A stretch of 64,000 nt of DNA, taken from the NCBI GenBank assembly GCA_030837225.1, contig JAUPKX010000007.1, positions 65,182 to 129,181 of the forward strand, written 5' to 3'. This DNA is from Patescibacteria group bacterium. Lineage in GTDB: Bacteria > Patescibacteriota > Minisyncoccia > Phycocordibacterales > Phycocordibacteraceae. Below, one piece after another: positions 15,848 to 57,706 of this stretch (the first letter of the stretch is position 1; every line of letters begins with the position of its first letter). A model generated the notes under the pieces. That model searched no databases. It was not told the DNA's origin and was given only the letters and a program-made list of their open reading frames with translations. The position numbers and the translations under genes were made by a program.

Positions 15848-16167
15848 TTGCGGGGGCCGGAATCGAACCGGCGTCTGGAGGTTCTTTTACACCTACTGTT
15901 TCCAGAAGGAATGGACTATACCATGATCCTGAACCAGGATCCTCCCATTATAGTCTCTGAACCTTTCCCGGAAAATTCCGAGACTTGGCTGCTGATTGCC
16001 GAATCTTCTTGTTTTTCAAGCATTCACGCTCATCCTTTCGGATCACGTTGTAGCACAAGAAGCTCTAACGGTATTCCAGCAATTTAGAGAGTTTTTCCAC
16101 TACCCGTTACCGGATAGGGTCACGTTGTTCACATGAGCCTCCCGAGGTACCTCTCCTCTACCCCGCT
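15848..16167 (-). tRNA. tRNA(CAT), likely initiator-type Met, interrupted by a group I intron (exons 16133..16167 and 15848..15883)
   Basis: Joined exons give AGCGGGGTAGAGGAGAGGTACCTCGGGAGGCTCAT|AACCTCCAGACGCCGGTTCGATTCCGGCCCCCGCAA. This folds as a canonical cloverleaf: 7-bp acceptor with unpaired A1/A72, U8, D-stem GAGG/CCTC with A11:U24, anticodon stem GGAGG/CCTCC, loop CTCATAA, T-arm GCCGG-TTCGATT-CCGGC. No CCA is encoded. Confidence 0.75.
15884..16132 (-). mobile_element. 249-nt ORF-less group I self-splicing intron in the tRNA(CAT) anticodon loop, between the anticodon and position 37
   Basis: Contains the conserved group I core elements R (GTTCAGAGACTATAA) and S (ATGGTATAGTCC), giving P7 GACTA/TAGTC. 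U at the 5' splice site, terminal G at the 3' splice site, and a candidate P1 guide (GTGACCC) pairing with the exon GGCTCAT. Confidence 0.7.
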
Positions 16168-16295: not shown

Positions 16296-16664
16296 ATGCC
16301 TCACAAGGACCCCGAGCGCGCAAAGGAGTATCACGCGAAGTATATGAAAGAAGTGTGGTATCCGAAAAACAAGGAGAAGCACCTTGCTTACGTGCGTCGT
16401 AACAAGCAGCGAGTTACAGCATTCATCGCAGCGTACAAAAAAGATCGCTCATGCACAGACTGTGGGTTCTCGGGGAAGGAATTCCCTTTTGTACTTGATT
16501 TTGACCACCTCGATGGAGGTCTCTCGAAGAAATTTACAATCGGCAGCTGGTCACACTCAGTACTCAGCATTGAAGCTATTGAAAAAGAAATTGAGAAGTG
16601 CGAACTTGTGTGCGCAAACTGTCACCGCATACGAACCTTCTCTAAGAAGGTTGTGGAGGGCTAA
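16296..16664 (+). CDS. free-standing HNH-family (homing-type) endonuclease
   Basis: C-x2-C ... FDHLDGG ... ELVCANCHRIRT (His-Asn-His beta-beta-alpha-metal motif with zinc-finger cysteines). Lower GC than the flanks. 129 nt from the intron-containing tRNA. Confidence 0.75.
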   Translation: MPHKDPERAKEYHAKYMKEVWYPKNKEKHLAYVRRNKQRVTAFIAAYKKDRSCTDCGFSGKEFPFVLDFDHLDGGLSKKFTIGSWSHSVLSIEAIEKEIEKCELVCANCHRIRTFSKKVVEG

Positions 16665-39163: not shown

Positions 39164-39240
39164 GCACCCTTAGCTCAGTTGGTTAGAGCACGGAGCTTAT
39201 ACCTCCGCGGTCCTTGGTTCGAGTCCAAGAGGGTGCACCA
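39164..39240 (+). tRNA. tRNA-Ile with rare anticodon TAT (UAU; decodes AUA), CCA encoded
   Basis: GCACCCTTAGCTCAGTTGGTTAGAGCACGGAGCTTATACCTCCGCGGTCCTTGGTTCGAGTCCAAGAGGGTGCACCA. Anticodon stem CGGAG/CTCCG, loop CTTATAC. Confidence 0.8.
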
Positions 39241-42154: not shown

Positions 42155-42561
42155 GGGGGTGACCGGCTTTGACGGTCCTGTACTTTGAGAGACGTGCGAC
42201 GCGGTGGAAGGATACTGACCACCTAAAAACGTATTCAATCAAACTTGCCAAGAACACTCTTGCAAGCGTAAAGTCGCCTTACTTCGGTAAGAAGGATTTT
42301 GCGTTCGCTTACGCGTAAAAGCTTCGCGCTTTCGCCTAAGCGACGTTCATACATCTCCGTTTCTTCAGGGAGTTGTATGGGCGGAATCTTCTGAAGAATC
42401 GGTATCGAGAGCCTCCCTGCCTTCGGCCTAAAAGATGGGACTAGGCAGAAGTGTTTTGGCTAACGTTCCTATGCTCCTGCTGAACCCTCAACGTTAGCTA
42501 CGCGTCGTAGACTCGCTCTTAAAGCAGGATTCGGACCGGAGTTCAACTCTCCGCACCTCCA
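42155..42561 (+). ncRNA. ssrA: transfer-messenger RNA (tmRNA, ssrA), about 407 nt, CCA not encoded
   Basis: 5' GGGGGTGACCGGCTTTGACGG resembles the tmRNA 5' consensus (GGGGCUGAUUCUGGAUUCGACGG). 3' T-arm CGGAG-TTCAACT-CTCCG plus acceptor CACCTCC-A. The acceptor includes a G3:U70 wobble pair, the alanine identity element. Lies immediately downstream of smpB. Confidence 0.7.
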
Positions 42562-42562
42562 C

Positions 42563-42607
42563 ATATAGAAACTATAAAACCGCCCTCTGGGCGGTTTTAT
42601 AGTTTCT
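42563..42607. terminator. 20-bp perfect inverted repeat terminator (bidirectional) after ssrA
   Basis: tagaaactataaaaccgccc-tctg-gggcggttttatagtttcta. Confidence 0.6.
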
Positions 42608-42609
42608 AA

Positions 42610-43500
42610 CTAATTAAATTCCCAGCTTGACGCTAGTTGTTCGATTGCGGCTCTCGTTTCCTCATACTCGTATTCAGGCCCTCCTCCCTGAATGACATAA
42701 CTATTACCATTGTCGGCAAACACTATATGGATAGTAAATCTTTCGCCTAGTTCGGGTCTGTCATAAATCCTTGAATTCCGACTCTGCCGCTCTATCGCCA
42801 AGCTTCCGTTAACAGTTCGCTGCAAAGTGCTGGCAATAATGTCGTTTTTAGCGTCATCAAATGTGTCTAGACCTTTTGTTACTCCAACACTAATATAGTG
42901 TTCTCTATTGTCCGTAGTCTTGCCGTCTTCCCGAATCAAATATACAGAACGAGCGTTTGTCTCATTTTCAGGACTGTCGCTAACCTTCCACCCAGCAGGA
43001 ATTGTAAAGGAGGCATTGTAATCAGCACCTCGGAGTGCGTACTTTGACTCAGCAGCTATTGCTTGTGCCGTTCTGTCATCATTTGATACTGCACTCTTTG
43101 GCACTTGCAAACTATAGGATGTAGTCATAAGTCCTGCCTGATATCCCAAGAGACTCCCGAGCAAGAAATAGATAACTCCGCAAACTCCTAGAATCGACCA
43201 GTACCCGAGCTGTGCTGCTCGCACTCCTGGATCATACGCACCGCCTCCATTCCAGATTGGGTAGCTATTACTTTTATTATTGACTGCTAGTAGACGCATG
43301 CCGAACCACGTGGCTCCAATCGCAAGAATAGTTACCGCAAGAACCCATAGCAGCATCTGGGTATTCTCTGTGACGCCCTGAGTAGCATCTGCATCCGGTT
43401 GAATTCCAGAGACATAGCCATTAAGAAGTCCCACAGCCAAGAGTACGAACCAGCAAAAAACGATAACAATTCGTATCATGATTAAAATTCTACCATCCAT
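42610..43500 (-). CDS. hypothetical membrane/exported protein
   Basis: Three N-terminal TM helices then a soluble domain; no recognisable family. Confidence 0.5.
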   Translation of the reverse strand: MDGRILIMIRIVIVFCWFVLLAVGLLNGYVSGIQPDADATQGVTENTQMLLWVLAVTILAIGATWFGMRLLAVNNKSNSYPIWNGGGAYDPGVRAAQLGYWSILGVCGVIYFLLGSLLGYQAGLMTTSYSLQVPKSAVSNDDRTAQAIAAESKYALRGADYNASFTIPAGWKVSDSPENETNARSVYLIREDGKTTDNREHYISVGVTKGLDTFDDAKNDIIASTLQRTVNGSLAIERQSRNSRIYDRPELGERFTIHIVFADNGNSYVIQGGGPEYEYEETRAAIEQLASSWEFN

Positions 43501-53344: not shown

Positions 53345-53971
53345 TTAGCGAGTGCCGGCCATAGCGAGAGCGGCTACGGTTGCGCGCGCGATAGTGAGCT
53401 TGTTCTTGGTGCGGGTGAGGATCTTTGCGATCACGTTGGTGACGCCAGCGTGCTCAAGCACAGTACGCATAGCGGATCCTGCAACCACACCACGACCTGG
53501 AGAAGGAATGATAGTGACAATTGAGGACGAGTTCTTGATCGATACATCGTGTGCGATCGAGTTCTCTGGAGTGCGCTTTACGGTGATGAGGTGCTTCTTT
53601 GCATCGCGAACTGCCTTGTCGATAGCGAGTGCAGTGTCAGCACCCTTGCCGAGTCCTACACCAACCCTTCCTTTCTTGTCGCCGATAACAACAGTAACGG
53701 AGAAGGAGAAACGACGACCACCAGCCATAACACGAGCTACACGGCGAACCTCGAGGGTTGCCTGCTCGAACTCGGAACGCTCACGAGGAGCGCGAGGGCC
53801 ACGGGAGTCCCTACGTCCGCCGCCAGGTCCTCCACGTCCACGCTGTGGACCGCTGCGGAAGTTGCCGCGCGCTGGTGCGGCGTCAGCTGCAGGAGCCTGT
53901 GCCTCAACCACTGCCTCTGGGACAACTGCTGGTGCGTCGGTATTCGTGTCGAGGGTAGTAGTGTCAGTCAT
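53345..53971 (-). CDS. rpsE: 30S ribosomal protein S5 with about 60 aa low-complexity N-terminal extension
   Basis: Conserved core EVRRVARVMAGGRRFSFSVTVVIGDKKGRVGVGLGKG. Confidence 0.95.
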   Translation of the reverse strand: MTDTTTLDTNTDAPAVVPEAVVEAQAPAADAAPARGNFRSGPQRGRGGPGGGRRDSRGPRAPRERSEFEQATLEVRRVARVMAGGRRFSFSVTVVIGDKKGRVGVGLGKGADTALAIDKAVRDAKKHLITVKRTPENSIAHDVSIKNSSSIVTIIPSPGRGVVAGSAMRTVLEHAGVTNVIAKILTRTKNKLTIARATVAALAMAGTR

Positions 53972-54328: not shown

Positions 54329-54862
54329 TTAGACAGCCTTCTTACCCTGCTTGCGGCGGATAACCTCGTTGTCGTACGCGATGCCCTTTCCGAGGTATGG
54401 CTCCGGTGGCTTGATGCCGCGGACTTCTGCCGCGAACTGGCCAACCTTCTGCTTGTCAGCGCCTTCGATGGTGATGGTGAGCTTCTCGACCTTCGCCTCG
54501 ATTCCCTCAGGGATCGGCATGGTTACCTGGTGCGAGAATCCGACGTTGAAGACGAGGTCGCGACCGCGGAGCTCTACCTTGAATCCCACACCCTTCATGA
54601 TGAGGACCTTCTTGAACGGAGTCTCAACGCCTGACATCATCGCGCGAGCGTGTGCAGCGAAGGTTCCGGTGAGCGCGCGAGCGAGCTTCGAGGAATTCGC
54701 GGGTGCAATCTGAAGTCCTTCAGACGTAACGTCCATGGTGATTGCCGAGTGGATCGGCATCGCAAGCGTTGCGTTTGATCCCTTCACCGTGAAGACACCA
54801 CCGTCAGTCGTGACAGTTACCTTCGAAGGGATTGCGATTGGCTTCTTTGCAAGACGGGACAT
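54329..54862 (-). CDS. rplF: 50S ribosomal protein L6
   Basis: MSRLAKKPIAIPSKVTV... duplicated L6 domains. Confidence 0.95.
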   Translation of the reverse strand: MSRLAKKPIAIPSKVTVTTDGGVFTVKGSNATLAMPIHSAITMDVTSEGLQIAPANSSKLARALTGTFAAHARAMMSGVETPFKKVLIMKGVGFKVELRGRDLVFNVGFSHQVTMPIPEGIEAKVEKLTITIEGADKQKVGQFAAEVRGIKPPEPYLGKGIAYDNEVIRRKQGKKAV

Positions 54863-54877
54863 AGTACTAAAAATGAA

Positions 54878-55267
54878 TTACCAGATCTCAAAGAGATTCT
54901 CGCCACCGACGCGGACCTTGCGAGCCTCAGCGTCAGTTAGGACACCACGAGGGGTCGAGATAAGGCGAGCGCCCATACCGTTCTTAACGCTGTGCGCTTC
55001 TGCGGACGGGGTGTAGAGCCTGCGACCTGGCTTTGAAACCCGCTTTACGCCGCTAATAGCGTGGCGGCCGCGCTCGTCATACGCGAGAGTAACCTCGAAC
55101 TCGTATGGCTTCTTGCCCTTCTCGACGCCTGCGACGTACCCAAGGGACTTCAACTTGTGTGCGATCTCCTCAACGTGCTTCGAAAACGGCACCGATACCG
55201 TCGGCTTGTTGATTGCGCCTGCATTCTTGAGGCGGATGATGAAATCTCCTACGCGGTCAGATACCAT
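54878..55267 (-). CDS. rpsH: 30S ribosomal protein S8
   Basis: MVSDRVGDFIIRLKNA...; the ORF-track start at 55375 would overlap rpsN, so an internal Met was chosen. Confidence 0.9.
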   Translation of the reverse strand: MVSDRVGDFIIRLKNAGAINKPTVSVPFSKHVEEIAHKLKSLGYVAGVEKGKKPYEFEVTLAYDERGRHAISGVKRVSKPGRRLYTPSAEAHSVKNGMGARLISTPRGVLTDAEARKVRVGGENLFEIW

Positions 55268-55274
55268 ACGAAAA

Positions 55275-55544
55275 TTACCAAGAAGCCTTCTTAACACCCG
55301 GGATCTTACCCTCGCGGGCGAGTTCGCGGAACATGATGCGGGAGAGACCGAACGGGCGCATGTAGCCACGTCCACGTCCCGTAACCGCGCAGCGGTTCTT
55401 TACGCGGGTAGGGCTCGAGTTCTTCGGGAGCTTCTGAAGGCCTTCCCAATCACCCGCAGCCTTAAGAGCAGCGCGCTTGTCAGCGTACTTCGCGACGAGC
55501 TTTATGCGCTTTTCATTGCGGGCGAGTTGGGATGCTTTGGCCAT
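55275..55544 (-). CDS. rpsN: 30S ribosomal protein S14 (long, zinc-less type)
   Basis: [13 protein letters not shown]... [11 protein letters not shown] ... 89 aa. Confidence 0.9.
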
Positions 55545-55615
55545 AAGAAAAAATAGCTCCGGGGAGCCGTAGAGCTAATCTATCAGCTAGGAAGTAGGCT
55601 GTCAAACCAATGAAG

Positions 55616-55644
55616 AGGGCCCCGCAGATTGCTCTGCGGGGCCT
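55616..55644 (-). terminator. stem-loop (putative terminator/attenuator) between the hypothetical gene and rpsN
   Basis: gggccccgcag-attgct-ctgcggggcc, an 11-bp GC-rich stem; the U-tail is weak. Confidence 0.35.
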
Positions 55645-55655
55645 GAAGGAATCAG

Positions 55656-56057
55656 CTAGCCCCAGGAGACCATTAAGCCCGGCTGGGCGCCGTGGGAGTC
55701 GCCCCCGTCTGCCTGTACTGAGAAGCCTTCTGCCTGAAGGAACTCGGTAAGCGCTGCAACGAGGGTTTGTTCTTGGTAGTCTTCGAGCCCATCCGTGTCG
55801 TCGTAAATTCTGAACGTTGCTGACGGCAGGAATGCCCTTGAATTGCCGTCCTCGGCAGCATCCATAAGAGTCGATTTGAAGTGATTGGTATACGTAAATC
55901 GAATAGTGCGCCGTATTTCCCTTGCCACCGTTTCTTTCTTATTTCGGACACGTTCTGCCTCGGCAAGAACACGTTGTGTGCATTCCCGAAGTAATGCAGC
56001 TTCAGTTTTTCTCCGGCCCATATCCTTCTCCTGGCTAGTAACCTCTTCCTGCAGCAA
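55656..56057 (-). CDS. hypothetical protein inserted in the spc ribosomal operon between rplE and rpsN
   Basis: 133 aa ORF bracketed by hairpins on both sides; basic helical N-terminus and acidic C-terminal domain; no recognisable family. Confidence 0.5.
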   Translation of the reverse strand: MLQEEVTSQEKDMGRRKTEAALLRECTQRVLAEAERVRNKKETVAREIRRTIRFTYTNHFKSTLMDAAEDGNSRAFLPSATFRIYDDTDGLEDYQEQTLVAALTEFLQAEGFSVQADGGDSHGAQPGLMVSWG

Positions 56058-56121
56058 ACACTAATAGAGTCCTTAGGTCAAGAATCGTAGAGGCACGAGG
56101 AATATCTTTTCGCATTAGCAT

Positions 56122-56149
56122 CAAGAAAAAAGCCCGCGCGCGGCGGGCT
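56122..56149 (-). terminator. rho-independent terminator downstream of rplE
   Basis: Minus strand reads agcccgc-cgcgc-gcgggct followed by TTTTTTCTTG. Confidence 0.65.
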
Positions 56150-56170
56150 GTTTTCTTGGTGAAACTAAGA

Positions 56171-56707
56171 TTACTCAGCGTCCTTCTTGAACGGAATCCC
56201 GAGGTGGCGGAAGAATGCGTCTGCCTCCTCCTTGGTCTTCGCAGTTGTCACAAGCGTAATCGCGAGACCAAATACGTCCTTAAGGTCCTCTTCAGCGGTC
56301 TCCGGGAAGATCGTGTGGTCCTTGATACCGATAGTGAGGTTACCCATCTCATCAATCGCGGTTGCGTTAAGTCCACGGAAGTCGCGCGTACGAGGAAGCG
56401 TGATGTGGATGAGCTTCTCGAGGAACTCATTCATACGAGCGCCACGAAGCGTAACCTGGTACCCCACGATGTCTCCTTCACGCATCTTGAACTGTGCGAT
56501 GGATTGCTTGGCCGGACGTGCGGATGCCTTCTGGCCTGTGATACGAGCAAGACGGCTCTCAACGAGTGCCTTCTTCGCCTTGTCTGCCTTTCCAACACCG
56601 GACGAAACCGTAATCTTGAGGAGCTTCGGAGAAGCATTCACGTTCGTGTAACCGAACTTCTCCTTGAGAGTTTCGAATGCGCTAACCTGCTTTTCTTTAG
56701 TGATCAT
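56171..56707 (-). CDS. rplE: 50S ribosomal protein L5
   Basis: Conserved L5 sequence (FRGLNATAIDEMGNLTIGIKDHTIFPE). Confidence 0.95.
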   Translation of the reverse strand: MITKEKQVSAFETLKEKFGYTNVNASPKLLKITVSSGVGKADKAKKALVESRLARITGQKASARPAKQSIAQFKMREGDIVGYQVTLRGARMNEFLEKLIHITLPRTRDFRGLNATAIDEMGNLTIGIKDHTIFPETAEEDLKDVFGLAITLVTTAKTKEEADAFFRHLGIPFKKDAE

Positions 56708-56717
56708 ACTGAAATCG

Positions 56718-57062
56718 TTATGCGAGGGTAGTACCGCTCTTTACGGAGATACGTACGTTCTTGCCGTCCTTGTTAGCCTCGCGCTTCACGCGAGTACCCT
56801 TCTTCTCCTTTGGGTCGTAGAACATGACGTTCGAGATTGCGATAGCTGCAGGCTTCTCGACAATGCGTCCAGTCTGGCCGCGAAGTCCGCGGTTGTGACG
56901 CTTTACGAGTCCAACACCTTCAACAACAATCTTCGCATCCTCGCGAAGAATCTTCTCGACGGTTCCCGTCTTACCCTTGTCCTTGCCAGAGATAACGACA
57001 ACGGTGTCGCCTTTCTTCAACTTAAACTTTGCGGTCTGCTTTCCTTGAGTTGCCTTAGACAT
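56718..57062 (-). CDS. rplX: 50S ribosomal protein L24
   Basis: KOW motif KLKKGDTVVVISGKDKGKTGTV. Confidence 0.95.
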   Translation of the reverse strand: MSKATQGKQTAKFKLKKGDTVVVISGKDKGKTGTVEKILREDAKIVVEGVGLVKRHNRGLRGQTGRIVEKPAAIAISNVMFYDPKEKKGTRVKREANKDGKNVRISVKSGTTLA

Positions 57063-57073
57063 AGAAATAGAGA

Positions 57074-57451
57074 TTAGACGACTTCAGGCGCGATAGACGC
57101 GATGTTCTGCCAGCCCTTATCAACGAGGTCGCGAGGAACAGGACCGAAGACACGGTTACCCTTAGGACCCATCTCCTTACCCTGCTTCTCAATGAGGACA
57201 ACAGCGTTGTCATCAAAGCGAACATAGATACCGGACGCACGGCGGAACGCCTTGCGCTGGCGAACCACAACCGCCTTGTAGATATCCTTCTTCTTAACCG
57301 CCTTGCGAGGCTCTGCGGACTGGATGGATACAACCACCACGTCGCCAATCTCAGCGTATCGCTTCTTCGAGCCACCAAGCACCTTGAAGACGCGTGCGAC
57401 TTTACCGCCTGAGTTATCTGTGACCGCTACGATTGACTGTGGCTGTACCAT
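57074..57451 (-). CDS. rplN: 50S ribosomal protein L14
   Basis: MVQPQSIVAVTDNSGGK... conserved L14 N-terminus. Confidence 0.95.
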   Translation of the reverse strand: MVQPQSIVAVTDNSGGKVARVFKVLGGSKKRYAEIGDVVVVSIQSAEPRKAVKKKDIYKAVVVRQRKAFRRASGIYVRFDDNAVVLIEKQGKEMGPKGNRVFGPVPRDLVDKGWQNIASIAPEVV

Positions 57452-57457
57452 AAATAA

Positions 57458-57706
57458 TTACTTTACGAGCGTGAATGACTTACGCTTCGACTTTGGCGCG
57501 CAGGCGACGATAGTAACCTGATCCCCTACCTTGGCAGTGTTGCCCTCGTCATGCACGAGGAACTTCTTGGTACGGGTCTGGTACTTCTTGTACTTCGGGT
57601 GCTTAACATAACGCGATACCGCAACGGTGATCGTGTCAGTCATGGCCGTCTTTACGACGGTTCCCTTGAAGGACTGAGGCTTTGCGGTTGTTGGTGTAGT
57701 TTCCAT
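57458..57706 (-). CDS. rpsQ: 30S ribosomal protein S17
   Basis: KGTVVKTAMTDTITVAV...HDEGNTAKVGDQVTI. Confidence 0.95.
   Translation of the reverse strand: METTPTTAKPQSFKGTVVKTAMTDTITVAVSRYVKHPKYKKYQTRTKKFLVHDEGNTAKVGDQVTIVACAPKSKRKSFTLVK

Follow-up and report, generated by a model that had tools for sequence, protein, structure and literature searches.

We analyzed a 64-kb stretch of DNA (64,000 nucleotides, referred to as the window, in whose coordinates positions are given unless a locus is named) on a contig of a Paceibacterota bacterium of the Patescibacteria, or candidate phyla radiation (CPR), and focused on the interval between rplE and rpsN, which encode the ribosomal proteins uL5 (L5) and uS14 (S14). 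Both genes are part of the S10-spc cluster, which is the standard example of genes that keep their order and are transcribed together, and which forms the backbone of CPR phylogenomics. In the window, the rplE-rpsN gap (55545-56170) measures exactly 626 bp and contains, on the minus strand, one open reading frame (ORF) and a GC-rich hairpin; the remaining intergenic gaps of the cluster, from rpsC to rplO, are all 3-15 nt. We refer to this gap as the slot, to its ORF as the slot gene, to the locus of the window as WIN and to the compared loci by L numbers. The original prediction had described a terminator behind rplE, an ORF and a GC-rich stem-loop before rpsN, and we recovered all three in place on the minus strand (Table 1). 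The E-values of the Pfam matches to the flanking genes range from 1e-12 to 1e-34, and rpsN encodes the long 89-aa form of uS14 with one Cys residue.

Table 1. Coordinates of the slot gene, its putative signals and the flanking genes
Feature	Coordinates	Strand	Evidence or description
Slot gene, 121-aa orphan protein (family A)	55656-56021	-	dN/dS, slot-restricted homologues, AlphaFold2 model
Shine-Dalgarno sequence AGGAG	56028-56032	-	6 nt upstream of the ATG at 56021
Putative slot-gene promoter	56053-56081	-	-35 TTGACC (56081-56076), 17-nt spacer ending in TG (56060-56059), -10 TTTGCT (56058-56053); read from sequence
Predicted rplE intrinsic terminator	56122-56158	-	Core stem-loop 56131-56149, A-tract/U-tract pairing extension, then T-run TTTTTTCTT
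GNRA-capped 3' hairpin, CCCCGCAGA-GCAA-TCTGCGGGG	55618-55643	-	Perfect 11-bp stem with 9 G-C pairs
Predicted dedicated rpsN promoter	55577-55605	-	TTGACA, 17 nt, TG-extended TAGATT (TGATAGATT); 10 of 12 consensus matches
rpsN 5' leader	55545-55568	-	Tetraloop hairpin 55555-55568 (-5.7 kcal/mol), U-run, without Shine-Dalgarno site
rplE (uL5), left flank of the slot	56171-56707	-	Pfam Ribosomal_L5 (E 1e-12), Ribosomal_L5_C (E 1e-29)
rpsN (uS14), right flank of the slot	55275-55544	-	Pfam Ribosomal_S14 (E 2e-29)
rpsH	54878-55270	-	Pfam

The slot gene and its predicted transcription signals

The longer reading of the ORF (55656-56057) starts at a TTG and corresponds to the 133-aa product originally proposed. 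We rejected the TTG at 56057 as the start codon, given that it lies inside the putative -10 element, has no Shine-Dalgarno sequence and precedes the ATG at which the homologues begin. All four homologues found in databases start at the position of the ATG at 56021. Thus, the proposed ORF is present, and its likelier product has 121 rather than 133 residues.

To assess coding potential, we compared the slot gene with that of L001, the locus in the same slot of a Logan assembly that encodes the single close homologue (P0001). The two genes differ by 36 substitutions, which fall 7, 5 and 24 times on the first, second and third codon position, respectively, and the ratio of nonsynonymous to synonymous substitution rates (dN/dS, or omega) is 0.13. 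In the other frames, omega is 0.8-2.4, except in the antisense frame that shares the third positions. We also considered an overlapping 99-aa ORF (55673-55972), and rejected it based on omega values of 1.5-1.9 in the other same-strand frames of the region. For comparison, the neighbouring ribosomal genes of WIN and L001 have omega values of 0.007-0.044 at a similar synonymous divergence (dS) of 0.28-0.59.

Homologues of the slot gene are few. A HMMER search over 1.84 billion cluster representatives added only P0002, P0003 and P0004 (E-values of 1.4e-10, 7.9e-8 and 5.9e-5, respectively; 121-126 aa; 33-37% identity), and a word-indexed profile search of 5.8 billion clusters returned no further relative of this family, which we call family A. 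All four database relatives are located between rplE and rpsN. The two closest alleles derive from the sequencing runs SRR22387820 and SRR22388146. Among the slot ORFs of the compared loci, those of L017 and L096 clearly belong to the family as well, and those of L007, L105 and L089 are marginal. In total, family A has about 7-10 members among billions of proteins, and these are 19-45% identical apart from one close pair (90%). The members share the motifs TEA..LR..T..LAE, AA.dGeS, L..FL..EGFtV and, at the C-terminus, G.SHG.QPGL.VSW. Together, these results indicate that the slot ORF truly encodes a protein and evolves under purifying selection.

AlphaFold2, run with a five-sequence alignment, modelled the 121-aa protein with a mean predicted local distance difference test score (pLDDT) of 83.9 and a predicted template modelling score (pTM) of 0.70, the five models ranging from 80 to 84 in pLDDT. 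The model consists of a 50-residue helix (residues 7-57), a beta-strand (62-66), a second helix (80-98) and two further beta-strands (101-105 and 115-119). Residues 1-57 have an isoelectric point (pI) of 10.5 and residues 58-121 one of 4.05, which agrees with the basic helical N-terminus and acidic C-terminus noted earlier. As also anticipated, the ORF belongs to no recognisable family: no Pfam family reaches the cut-off, and searches of the ORF and family A against Pfam, PHROG and PADLOC returned nothing usable. The best match of family A in a sequence search of the PDB has an E-value of 0.46, and a Foldseek search of the PDB with the AlphaFold2 model returned no match. Against BFVD, Foldseek returned many weak matches to small uncharacterised phage proteins (best E-value 2.5e-4; template modelling scores of ~0.4-0.5), which we treat as a lead and not as evidence. 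By sequence, neither tblastn against 50,697 phage genomes nor a search of IMG/VR yielded a relative. Reading the sequence of the protein, we found neither a signal peptide nor a transmembrane segment. With the model in mind, we tentatively regard the product as probably a small cytoplasmic accessory protein that would act as a nucleic-acid- or protein-binding modulator.

The slot gene is bracketed by two predicted hairpins. The element behind rplE has a stem with a 7-bp GC core, which reaches ~15 bp once extended, and the tail UUUUUUCUU; its minimum free energy is -23.1 kcal/mol (z = -4.6), and none of 200 shuffled sequences folds as well. With a G+C-rich stem-loop followed by a U-tract after the stop codon, it has the features of an intrinsic terminator. 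The second hairpin lies 3' of the slot gene in a 51-nt segment with a minimum free energy of -26.6 kcal/mol (z = -4.7), is followed by the moderately U-rich tail CTCTTCATTGGTTT (CUCUUCAUUGGUUU), of which about half is U, and is present in a single copy in the window. Between 54800 and 57200, we counted nine terminator-like sites against 2.5 ± 1.7 in shuffled sequences. An Rfam scan of 54500-57500 at E ≤ 10 returned only sub-threshold terminator-like matches and no known RNA; BjrC68 scored highest, with 22 bits where the gathering score is 39.

Upstream of the slot gene, we identified a putative promoter by inspection. A TTGACn -35 element, a 17-nt spacer and a -10 element of the sequence TTTGCT, TTAGCT, TTTAGT or TTATCT are kept in six family A loci (WIN, L001, L082, L083, L084 and L017). 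Five of these promoters have gTG at the end of the spacer, and in four of the six the -35 element overlaps the U-tract of the rplE terminator. A GGAG-type Shine-Dalgarno sequence and an ATG follow ~25-35 nt downstream of the promoter in the family A loci. A scan with a consensus promoter did not detect the slot-gene promoter, its -10 element being weak. Because the promoter is conserved while the coding DNA is saturated with substitutions (see below), we argue that it is predicted to be functional.

The rplE-rpsN junction across the clade

To place the slot in its phylogenetic context, we searched the GTDB representative genomes with L5; the relatives recovered were metagenome-assembled genomes (MAGs) of Patescibacteria, Paceibacterota and Parcubacteria. 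Together with loci from protein contexts and 22 metagenome contigs recovered by the pattern of the rpsN promoter alone, these genomes gave 63 clade loci. The rplE-rpsN gap exceeds 400 bp in 56 of these 63 loci, in which it ranges from 470 to 2294 bp with a median of 723 bp; it is 150-400 bp in 3 loci and 150 bp or less in 4. In the outgroup loci, the matches to rplE and rpsN are ~20-210 nt apart. The insert nearly always contains an ORF on the same strand with a length of ~90-300 aa.

The predicted signals on both sides of the slot recur in the clade. A hairpin with a T-run lies ≤90 nt from the rplE stop codon in 53 of the 59 related loci with a gap of >150 bp. Within the ~70 nt before rpsN, a TTGAC -35 element, a 17-nt spacer and an extended -10 element, TGnTAnnnT, are invariant in 40 aligned clade loci. 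This promoter is kept even where there is no insert, as in L025 and L026 (gap of 71 nt) and in L046 and L049 (gap of 36 nt); in the latter two loci, it overlaps the 3' end of rplE. The same 40-locus alignment contains a tetraloop hairpin of 4-5 bp ~8 nt past the -10 element, followed by a U-run and the ATG, without a Shine-Dalgarno sequence. The loop is CCCG, UUCG or GAAA, depending on the locus. Across 37 distinct sequences, 89% of the cells of the hairpin are paired, and one pair covaries from U-A to C-G in five sequences, which lends the hairpin modest support. This leader may act as a 5' stabiliser or as a translational or attenuator element. These data support that the spc operon is cut in two throughout the clade by a predicted rplE terminator and a new rpsN promoter, and that it is split at the rplE/rpsN junction in the window. 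They also bear out the original proposal that the L5-S14-S8 continuity is broken here by an independent gene, which combines a dN/dS of 0.13 with its own putative promoter, an upstream terminator, a second hairpin and an rpsN promoter downstream.

In a subset of relatives, but not in the window, the leader hairpin of rpsN is separated from the ATG by an additional element of ~85 nt. We located it at L012:5385-5477, L017:1826-1918, L023:5388-5480, L036:4668-4760, L040:4957-5049, L055:5046-5138, L088:1462-1554 and L096:1691-1783(-). The element has conserved GCGAG[UGC]GAG and CGAGCGAG motifs as well as a nested helix, and of the 17 pairs predicted by RNAalifold, 15 have compensatory changes. It has no Rfam match at the gathering level. 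It is a candidate for a new ribosomal-protein leader, possibly a target of S8 or S14.

The clade with the slot has the long, Cys-poor uS14 of 89 aa. Most outgroup and other CPR loci (among L044-L081) align only to residues 37-89 of rpsN, approximately its C-terminal half, and have short rplE-rpsN spacers. We take these partial alignments as a short form of uS14. The break in the operon could stem from a past xenologous replacement of rpsN in which the incoming copy brought a promoter along.

The genes in the slot vary. Besides many singletons, we distinguished at least five unrelated families of slot ORFs that recur (A, C, F, G and H). Family C is present in L003, L004, L101 and L102, family F with a lipoprotein-like N-terminus in 11 loci, family G in L009, L011, L012 and L086, and family H in L021-L023. 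A Pfam scan left 19 of 20 slot ORFs without a match at E ≤ 0.01, one of them with a sub-threshold match to RHH_3; the single Pfam-positive ORF matches Methyltransf_33 and lies in a 2.3-kb insert. In the database of 5.8 billion clusters, members of families A and C occur only in the slot, wherever the context could be read. We considered and rejected a single fast-evolving family for all slot ORFs: the family A hidden Markov model matches only WIN, L001, L007, L017 and L096, with L089 marginal, and in the first search the next best match had an E-value of 2.2. By eye, many slot proteins of the clade have signal-peptide- or lipoprotein-like N-termini.

Among more distant loci, the slot ORFs of L020, L024, L027, L028, L029, L032, L034 and L055 have an apparent signal-peptide start (..A[FY]AQE..), and some of these proteins end in an aromatic motif such as ..ELRWKF, ..ELGWQF or ..FALHW; they are predicted to be small and secreted. 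The only hint of slot-type sequence outside the slot came from L018, in which a 102-aa ORF, one of several overlapping ORFs in the slot region, has a 44-aa tblastn match of 39% identity at 43186-43317 (-) of the window (E-value 7e-6).

The recurrence of the 3' hairpin is independent of the gene before it. It is found 460-670 nt past rplE, behind unrelated first genes, in 15 loci other than WIN (16 with the window), and in L087, L090 and L106 it stands between one cassette and the next. In the variants, the loop is GCGA or GAAA, and some stem pairs, as read from the sequences, are altered on both sides. The position of the hairpin directly after the slot genes in 16 loci fits a terminator. We consider it probable that the hairpin terminates transcription of the slot gene and marks where the variable segment ends on the right; it would act either as a fixed terminator of the slot or else as a preferred crossover boundary.

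Breakpoints, allele age and explanations for slot turnover

At the nucleotide level, WIN is 90-92% identical to L002, L003 and L004 and ~78-84% identical to L006, L053, L007, L008 and L082. This homology is unbroken over 1.8 kb of upstream ribosomal genes and is lost at the rplE stop codon or terminator (56170-56123), the left breakpoint lying at the stop codon, in the middle of the terminator or past it, depending on the comparison. For L003, L004 and L084, homology resumes exactly at 55643, where the 3' hairpin begins, and for L002, L053 and L007 at 55615. In L002, L003, L004 and L101, L5 is 98-99% identical to that of WIN, and the slot ORFs are unrelated. More broadly, the slot gene is absent from L002-L004, L006, L053 and L101 despite L5 sequences that are 94-99% identical, and thus does not show the conservation expected of a ribosomal factor.

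The similarity of slot alleles is incongruent with that of their flanks. Among WIN, L001, L084, L002 and L004, rpsN is 94-96% identical in nucleotide sequence. WIN and L084 share 96% nucleotide identity in rpsN, with dS values of 0.20 for rpsN and 0.28 for rpsH, and the two loci are 95% identical over the 779 nt of right flank that extend from the hairpin through rpsH; yet their slot proteins are only 33% identical, and the proportion of synonymous differences (pS) between the slot genes is 0.81, i.e., saturated. WIN and L001, with 94% nucleotide identity in rpsN and dS values of 0.28-0.59 in the adjacent genes, have equally distant flanks, yet their slot proteins are 90% identical, with a pS of 0.28 (dS of 0.35). 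Selection on the protein does not drive change at synonymous sites, and their saturation thus gives the alleles of WIN and L084 a far greater age than the flanking DNA, which points to import by recombination. The GC content of the slot ORF (0.533) is close to that of the window (0.521), without a compositional anomaly, so that the donors of slot genes are probably within the clade.

Based on these data, we consider it likely that the 626-bp interval is one allele of a variable slot that is present throughout this clade of Paceibacterota and resembles a small replacement island of moron-like cassettes. Transcription of rplE would end at its intrinsic terminator, and that of rpsN would restart from its own conserved promoter; predicted transcript starts lie near 56046 and 55570, and predicted ends near 56122 and 55612. 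Between these signals would lie a self-contained unit of TG-extended promoter, Shine-Dalgarno sequence, ORF and hairpin. Slot genes would be swapped by homologous recombination through the highly conserved ribosomal flanks. Because the slot is predicted to be insulated on both sides, such a replacement would leave the expression of the ribosomal proteins undisturbed. The diversity of the slot is plausibly kept by frequency-dependent selection, e.g., in interactions with phages or hosts.

Two alternatives concern the nature of the slot gene itself. That the ORF is spurious, and the 626 bp a long structured 5' untranslated region or noncoding RNA before rpsN, could be argued from its orphan family, the doubtful TTG start, the hairpins at both ends and its absence from sister genomes. 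The last of these was what the original prediction had proposed as a sign of a spurious ORF. The ORF is indeed missing from sisters with the same flanks, but there the gene is replaced by another one. Moreover, its low dN/dS and third-position bias, the distant homologues in the same slot that match it in length and share conserved motifs, the good Shine-Dalgarno sequence at its start and the confident and reproducible AlphaFold2 model all speak for a protein; no Rfam family comes near its gathering score, and rpsN has its promoter past the end of the ORF, at only ~30 nt from the rpsN start codon. We therefore regard a spurious ORF as extremely improbable. The original prediction had also guessed at a lineage-specific ribosome-associated or translation-regulatory protein, co-regulated by virtue of its position. 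The location inside the spc cluster, the basic N-terminal helix and the finding that every known member of family A occupies this position are in line with such a role. However, sisters with 98-99% identical L5 and 94-95% identical rpsN carry unrelated genes in its place, a family of ~7-10 members that are mostly 19-45% identical is very unlike ribosomal factors, and the gene is predicted to be insulated by a terminator and to have its own promoter. A ribosomal role thus appears quite improbable, and we infer, tentatively, that the protein is not a component of the ribosome. Our best guess, which we offer as a possibility only, is an accessory binding protein outside the ribosome that would be under frequency-dependent selection.

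Two further alternatives concern how the slot came to vary. Rapid divergence of one ancestral gene in place, by positive selection in an arms race or by local hypermutation, could be argued from family A alleles spanning 19-90% identity, barely recognisable remote members (L007, L105 and L089) and a common 3' hairpin behind different genes. This explanation is very unlikely in light of the saturated synonymous sites of the WIN/L084 slot genes (pS of 0.81 versus a dS of 0.20-0.28 in rpsN and rpsH), the omega of 0.13 for the same gene between WIN and L001, the lack of detectable similarity between families A, C, F and G, which differ in length and in the presence of a signal-peptide-like N-terminus, and the incongruence between alleles and flanks. 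In the loci examined, we saw no template repeat and reverse transcriptase of the type found in diversity-generating retroelements within ~4 kb of the slot. Site-specific recombination, either integron-like or borne by an element, with the conserved hairpin as the recombination site, would account for a right breakpoint that falls exactly at the hairpin start (55643) in three comparisons and for the same GNRA hairpin behind unrelated genes in 16 loci and between two cassettes in L087, L090 and L106. We consider this unlikely as well: the loci with called genes have no recombinase gene within ~4 kb of the slot, the left breakpoints vary, there are no flanking direct or inverted repeats beyond chance, and the window has one copy of the hairpin only. 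In addition, attC sites are 57-141 nt long and imperfect, and the hairpin is a perfect 26-nt terminator-like stem-loop with a tetraloop, unlike attC. A search for flanking repeats and att-like sites gave short matches at chance level only; one of these, a 15-of-20 repeat between the T-run after the terminator and the start of rpsN, was rejected as probably due to chance. We therefore consider site-specific recombination the less likely mechanism and prefer homologous exchange by way of the flanks.

Several observations weigh against a replaceable, insulated cassette as set out above. The U-tract of the 3' hairpin is weak, the slot-gene promoter has a poor -10 element (TTTGCT), and both promoter and terminator activity are predictions from sequence. 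The case for homologous recombination is made by breakpoints and incongruence; the boundary substitution peaks that are the tell-tale sign of such exchange are undetectable, the test being uninformative at a divergence of ~10% throughout. With a 121-aa protein that has no signal peptide, the rationale of replacement islands, namely, exposed surface structures, does not obviously apply. Finally, the sequences used for comparison come almost entirely from MAGs or short metagenome contigs, and chimeric assembly at a variable site is possible in some of these cases; the slot architecture recurs in contigs of 190-690 kb.

Going beyond the exchange of cassettes, we raise the more speculative possibility that the rplE/rpsN junction is a selectively maintained polymorphic expression site, at which mutually non-homologous, locus-restricted orphan genes for cytoplasmic, lipoprotein or secreted products would persist as ancient alternative alleles, similar to idiomorphs. 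Recombination through the ribosomal flanks would shuffle them between lineages, with phages or the hosts of these episymbiotic bacteria exerting frequency-dependent selection. If so, the most conserved gene cluster of bacteria would be the recombination scaffold for one of the most variable loci of the genome.

Comparison with known systems and further features of the window

The canonical spc operon of Escherichia coli (rplN-rplX-rplE-rpsN-rpsH...), reportedly the subject of Cerretti et al. in 1983, is expressed as one transcript and autoregulated by S8 at the start of rplE. The order L14-L24-L5-S14-S8-L6-L18-S5-L15-SecY is kept in the window, with spacers of 3-15 nt elsewhere. The differences are the predicted rplE terminator, the dedicated rpsN promoter and leader, and the inserted accessory gene. 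With this arrangement, S8-type feedback on the distal genes of the operon would need a new target or another route in this clade, for which the rpsN leader and, in some genomes, the extra structured leader element are candidates.

The slot shares with integron cassettes that single, mostly orphan ORFs with a hairpin occupy a fixed locus, the content of which differs between strains. In contrast to integrons, the slot has no integrase among its called neighbours and no attI/attC architecture, its cassettes carry their own predicted promoters, and its hairpin is terminator-like. The slot unit is, therefore, not an integron cassette.

Closer parallels are found in replacement flexible genomic islands, as described by Lopez-Perez, Martin-Cuadrado and Rodriguez-Valera in 2014, which are clusters of 10-100 kb (PMC4033161). 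Like these islands, the slot has the same chromosomal position in relatives and contains differing, often non-homologous, genes; it also has flanks of conserved core genes that permit homologous exchange, and the age of its alleles is incongruent with that of the flanks (PMC4033161). It differs in that it usually carries one gene of ~0.5 kb and only rarely two or three, and lies inside a ribosomal protein super-operon. The allele of the window is predicted to be cytoplasmic and not an exposed structure, although other slot families look signal- or lipoprotein-like by eye, and, as described above, boundary substitution peaks are masked by a background divergence of ~10%. The slot unit is also reminiscent of phage morons, in which a promoter, an ORF and a terminator are inserted between genes that are adjacent elsewhere, and which are accessory and usually of unknown function (reviewed in 'The moron comes of age', PMC3594210). 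Similar to a moron, it has, in silico, its own promoter, one ORF and a terminator, is accessory, and is inserted between genes that are adjacent in the outgroups and in L025, L026, L046 and L049 (36-71 nt). Unlike a moron, it is chromosomal and part of a ribosomal cluster and not of a phage or prophage, it has no phage homologue by sequence, and its composition equals that of the host; the sole link to phages is the weak Foldseek similarity.

In the literature, we found no paper on an insert or split at the rplE/rpsN junction in CPR bacteria. What is new is the context, i.e., a clade-wide variable slot, driven by recombination as we interpret it, amid the ribosomal super-operon. The predicted insulated gap turns over accessory genes even where the flanking ribosomal proteins are 98-99% identical. 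Since any contig with rplE and rpsN contains it, the slot is a defined and easily recovered locus for studying how genes move, how orphan genes evolve and how recombination acts in uncultivated Patescibacteria. It could also be used as a metagenomic strain marker, and it is a likely point of assembly breaks.

Elsewhere in the window, rpsE (uS5; 53345-53971, -) encodes a protein of 208 aa with an N-terminal extension of ~65 residues before the conserved domain, which is rich in Ala/Pro and then in Arg/Gly (..GPQRGRGGPGGGRRDSRGPRAPRER..). A transfer-messenger RNA gene (RF00023, 96.4 bits) is located at 42155-42564 (+) and was not reported by ARAGORN. At 39164-39240 (+), the window has a tRNA-Ile gene with the anticodon TAT, which is uncommon in bacteria, in which AUA is usually decoded by a lysidine-modified CAT tRNA. 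A group I intron (RF00028, 68.7 bits) lies at 15892-16123 (-), in a window without any rRNA match, and is adjoined by a 122-aa ORF (16296-16664, +) with Cys/His motifs that, by eye, resemble those of HNH homing endonucleases.

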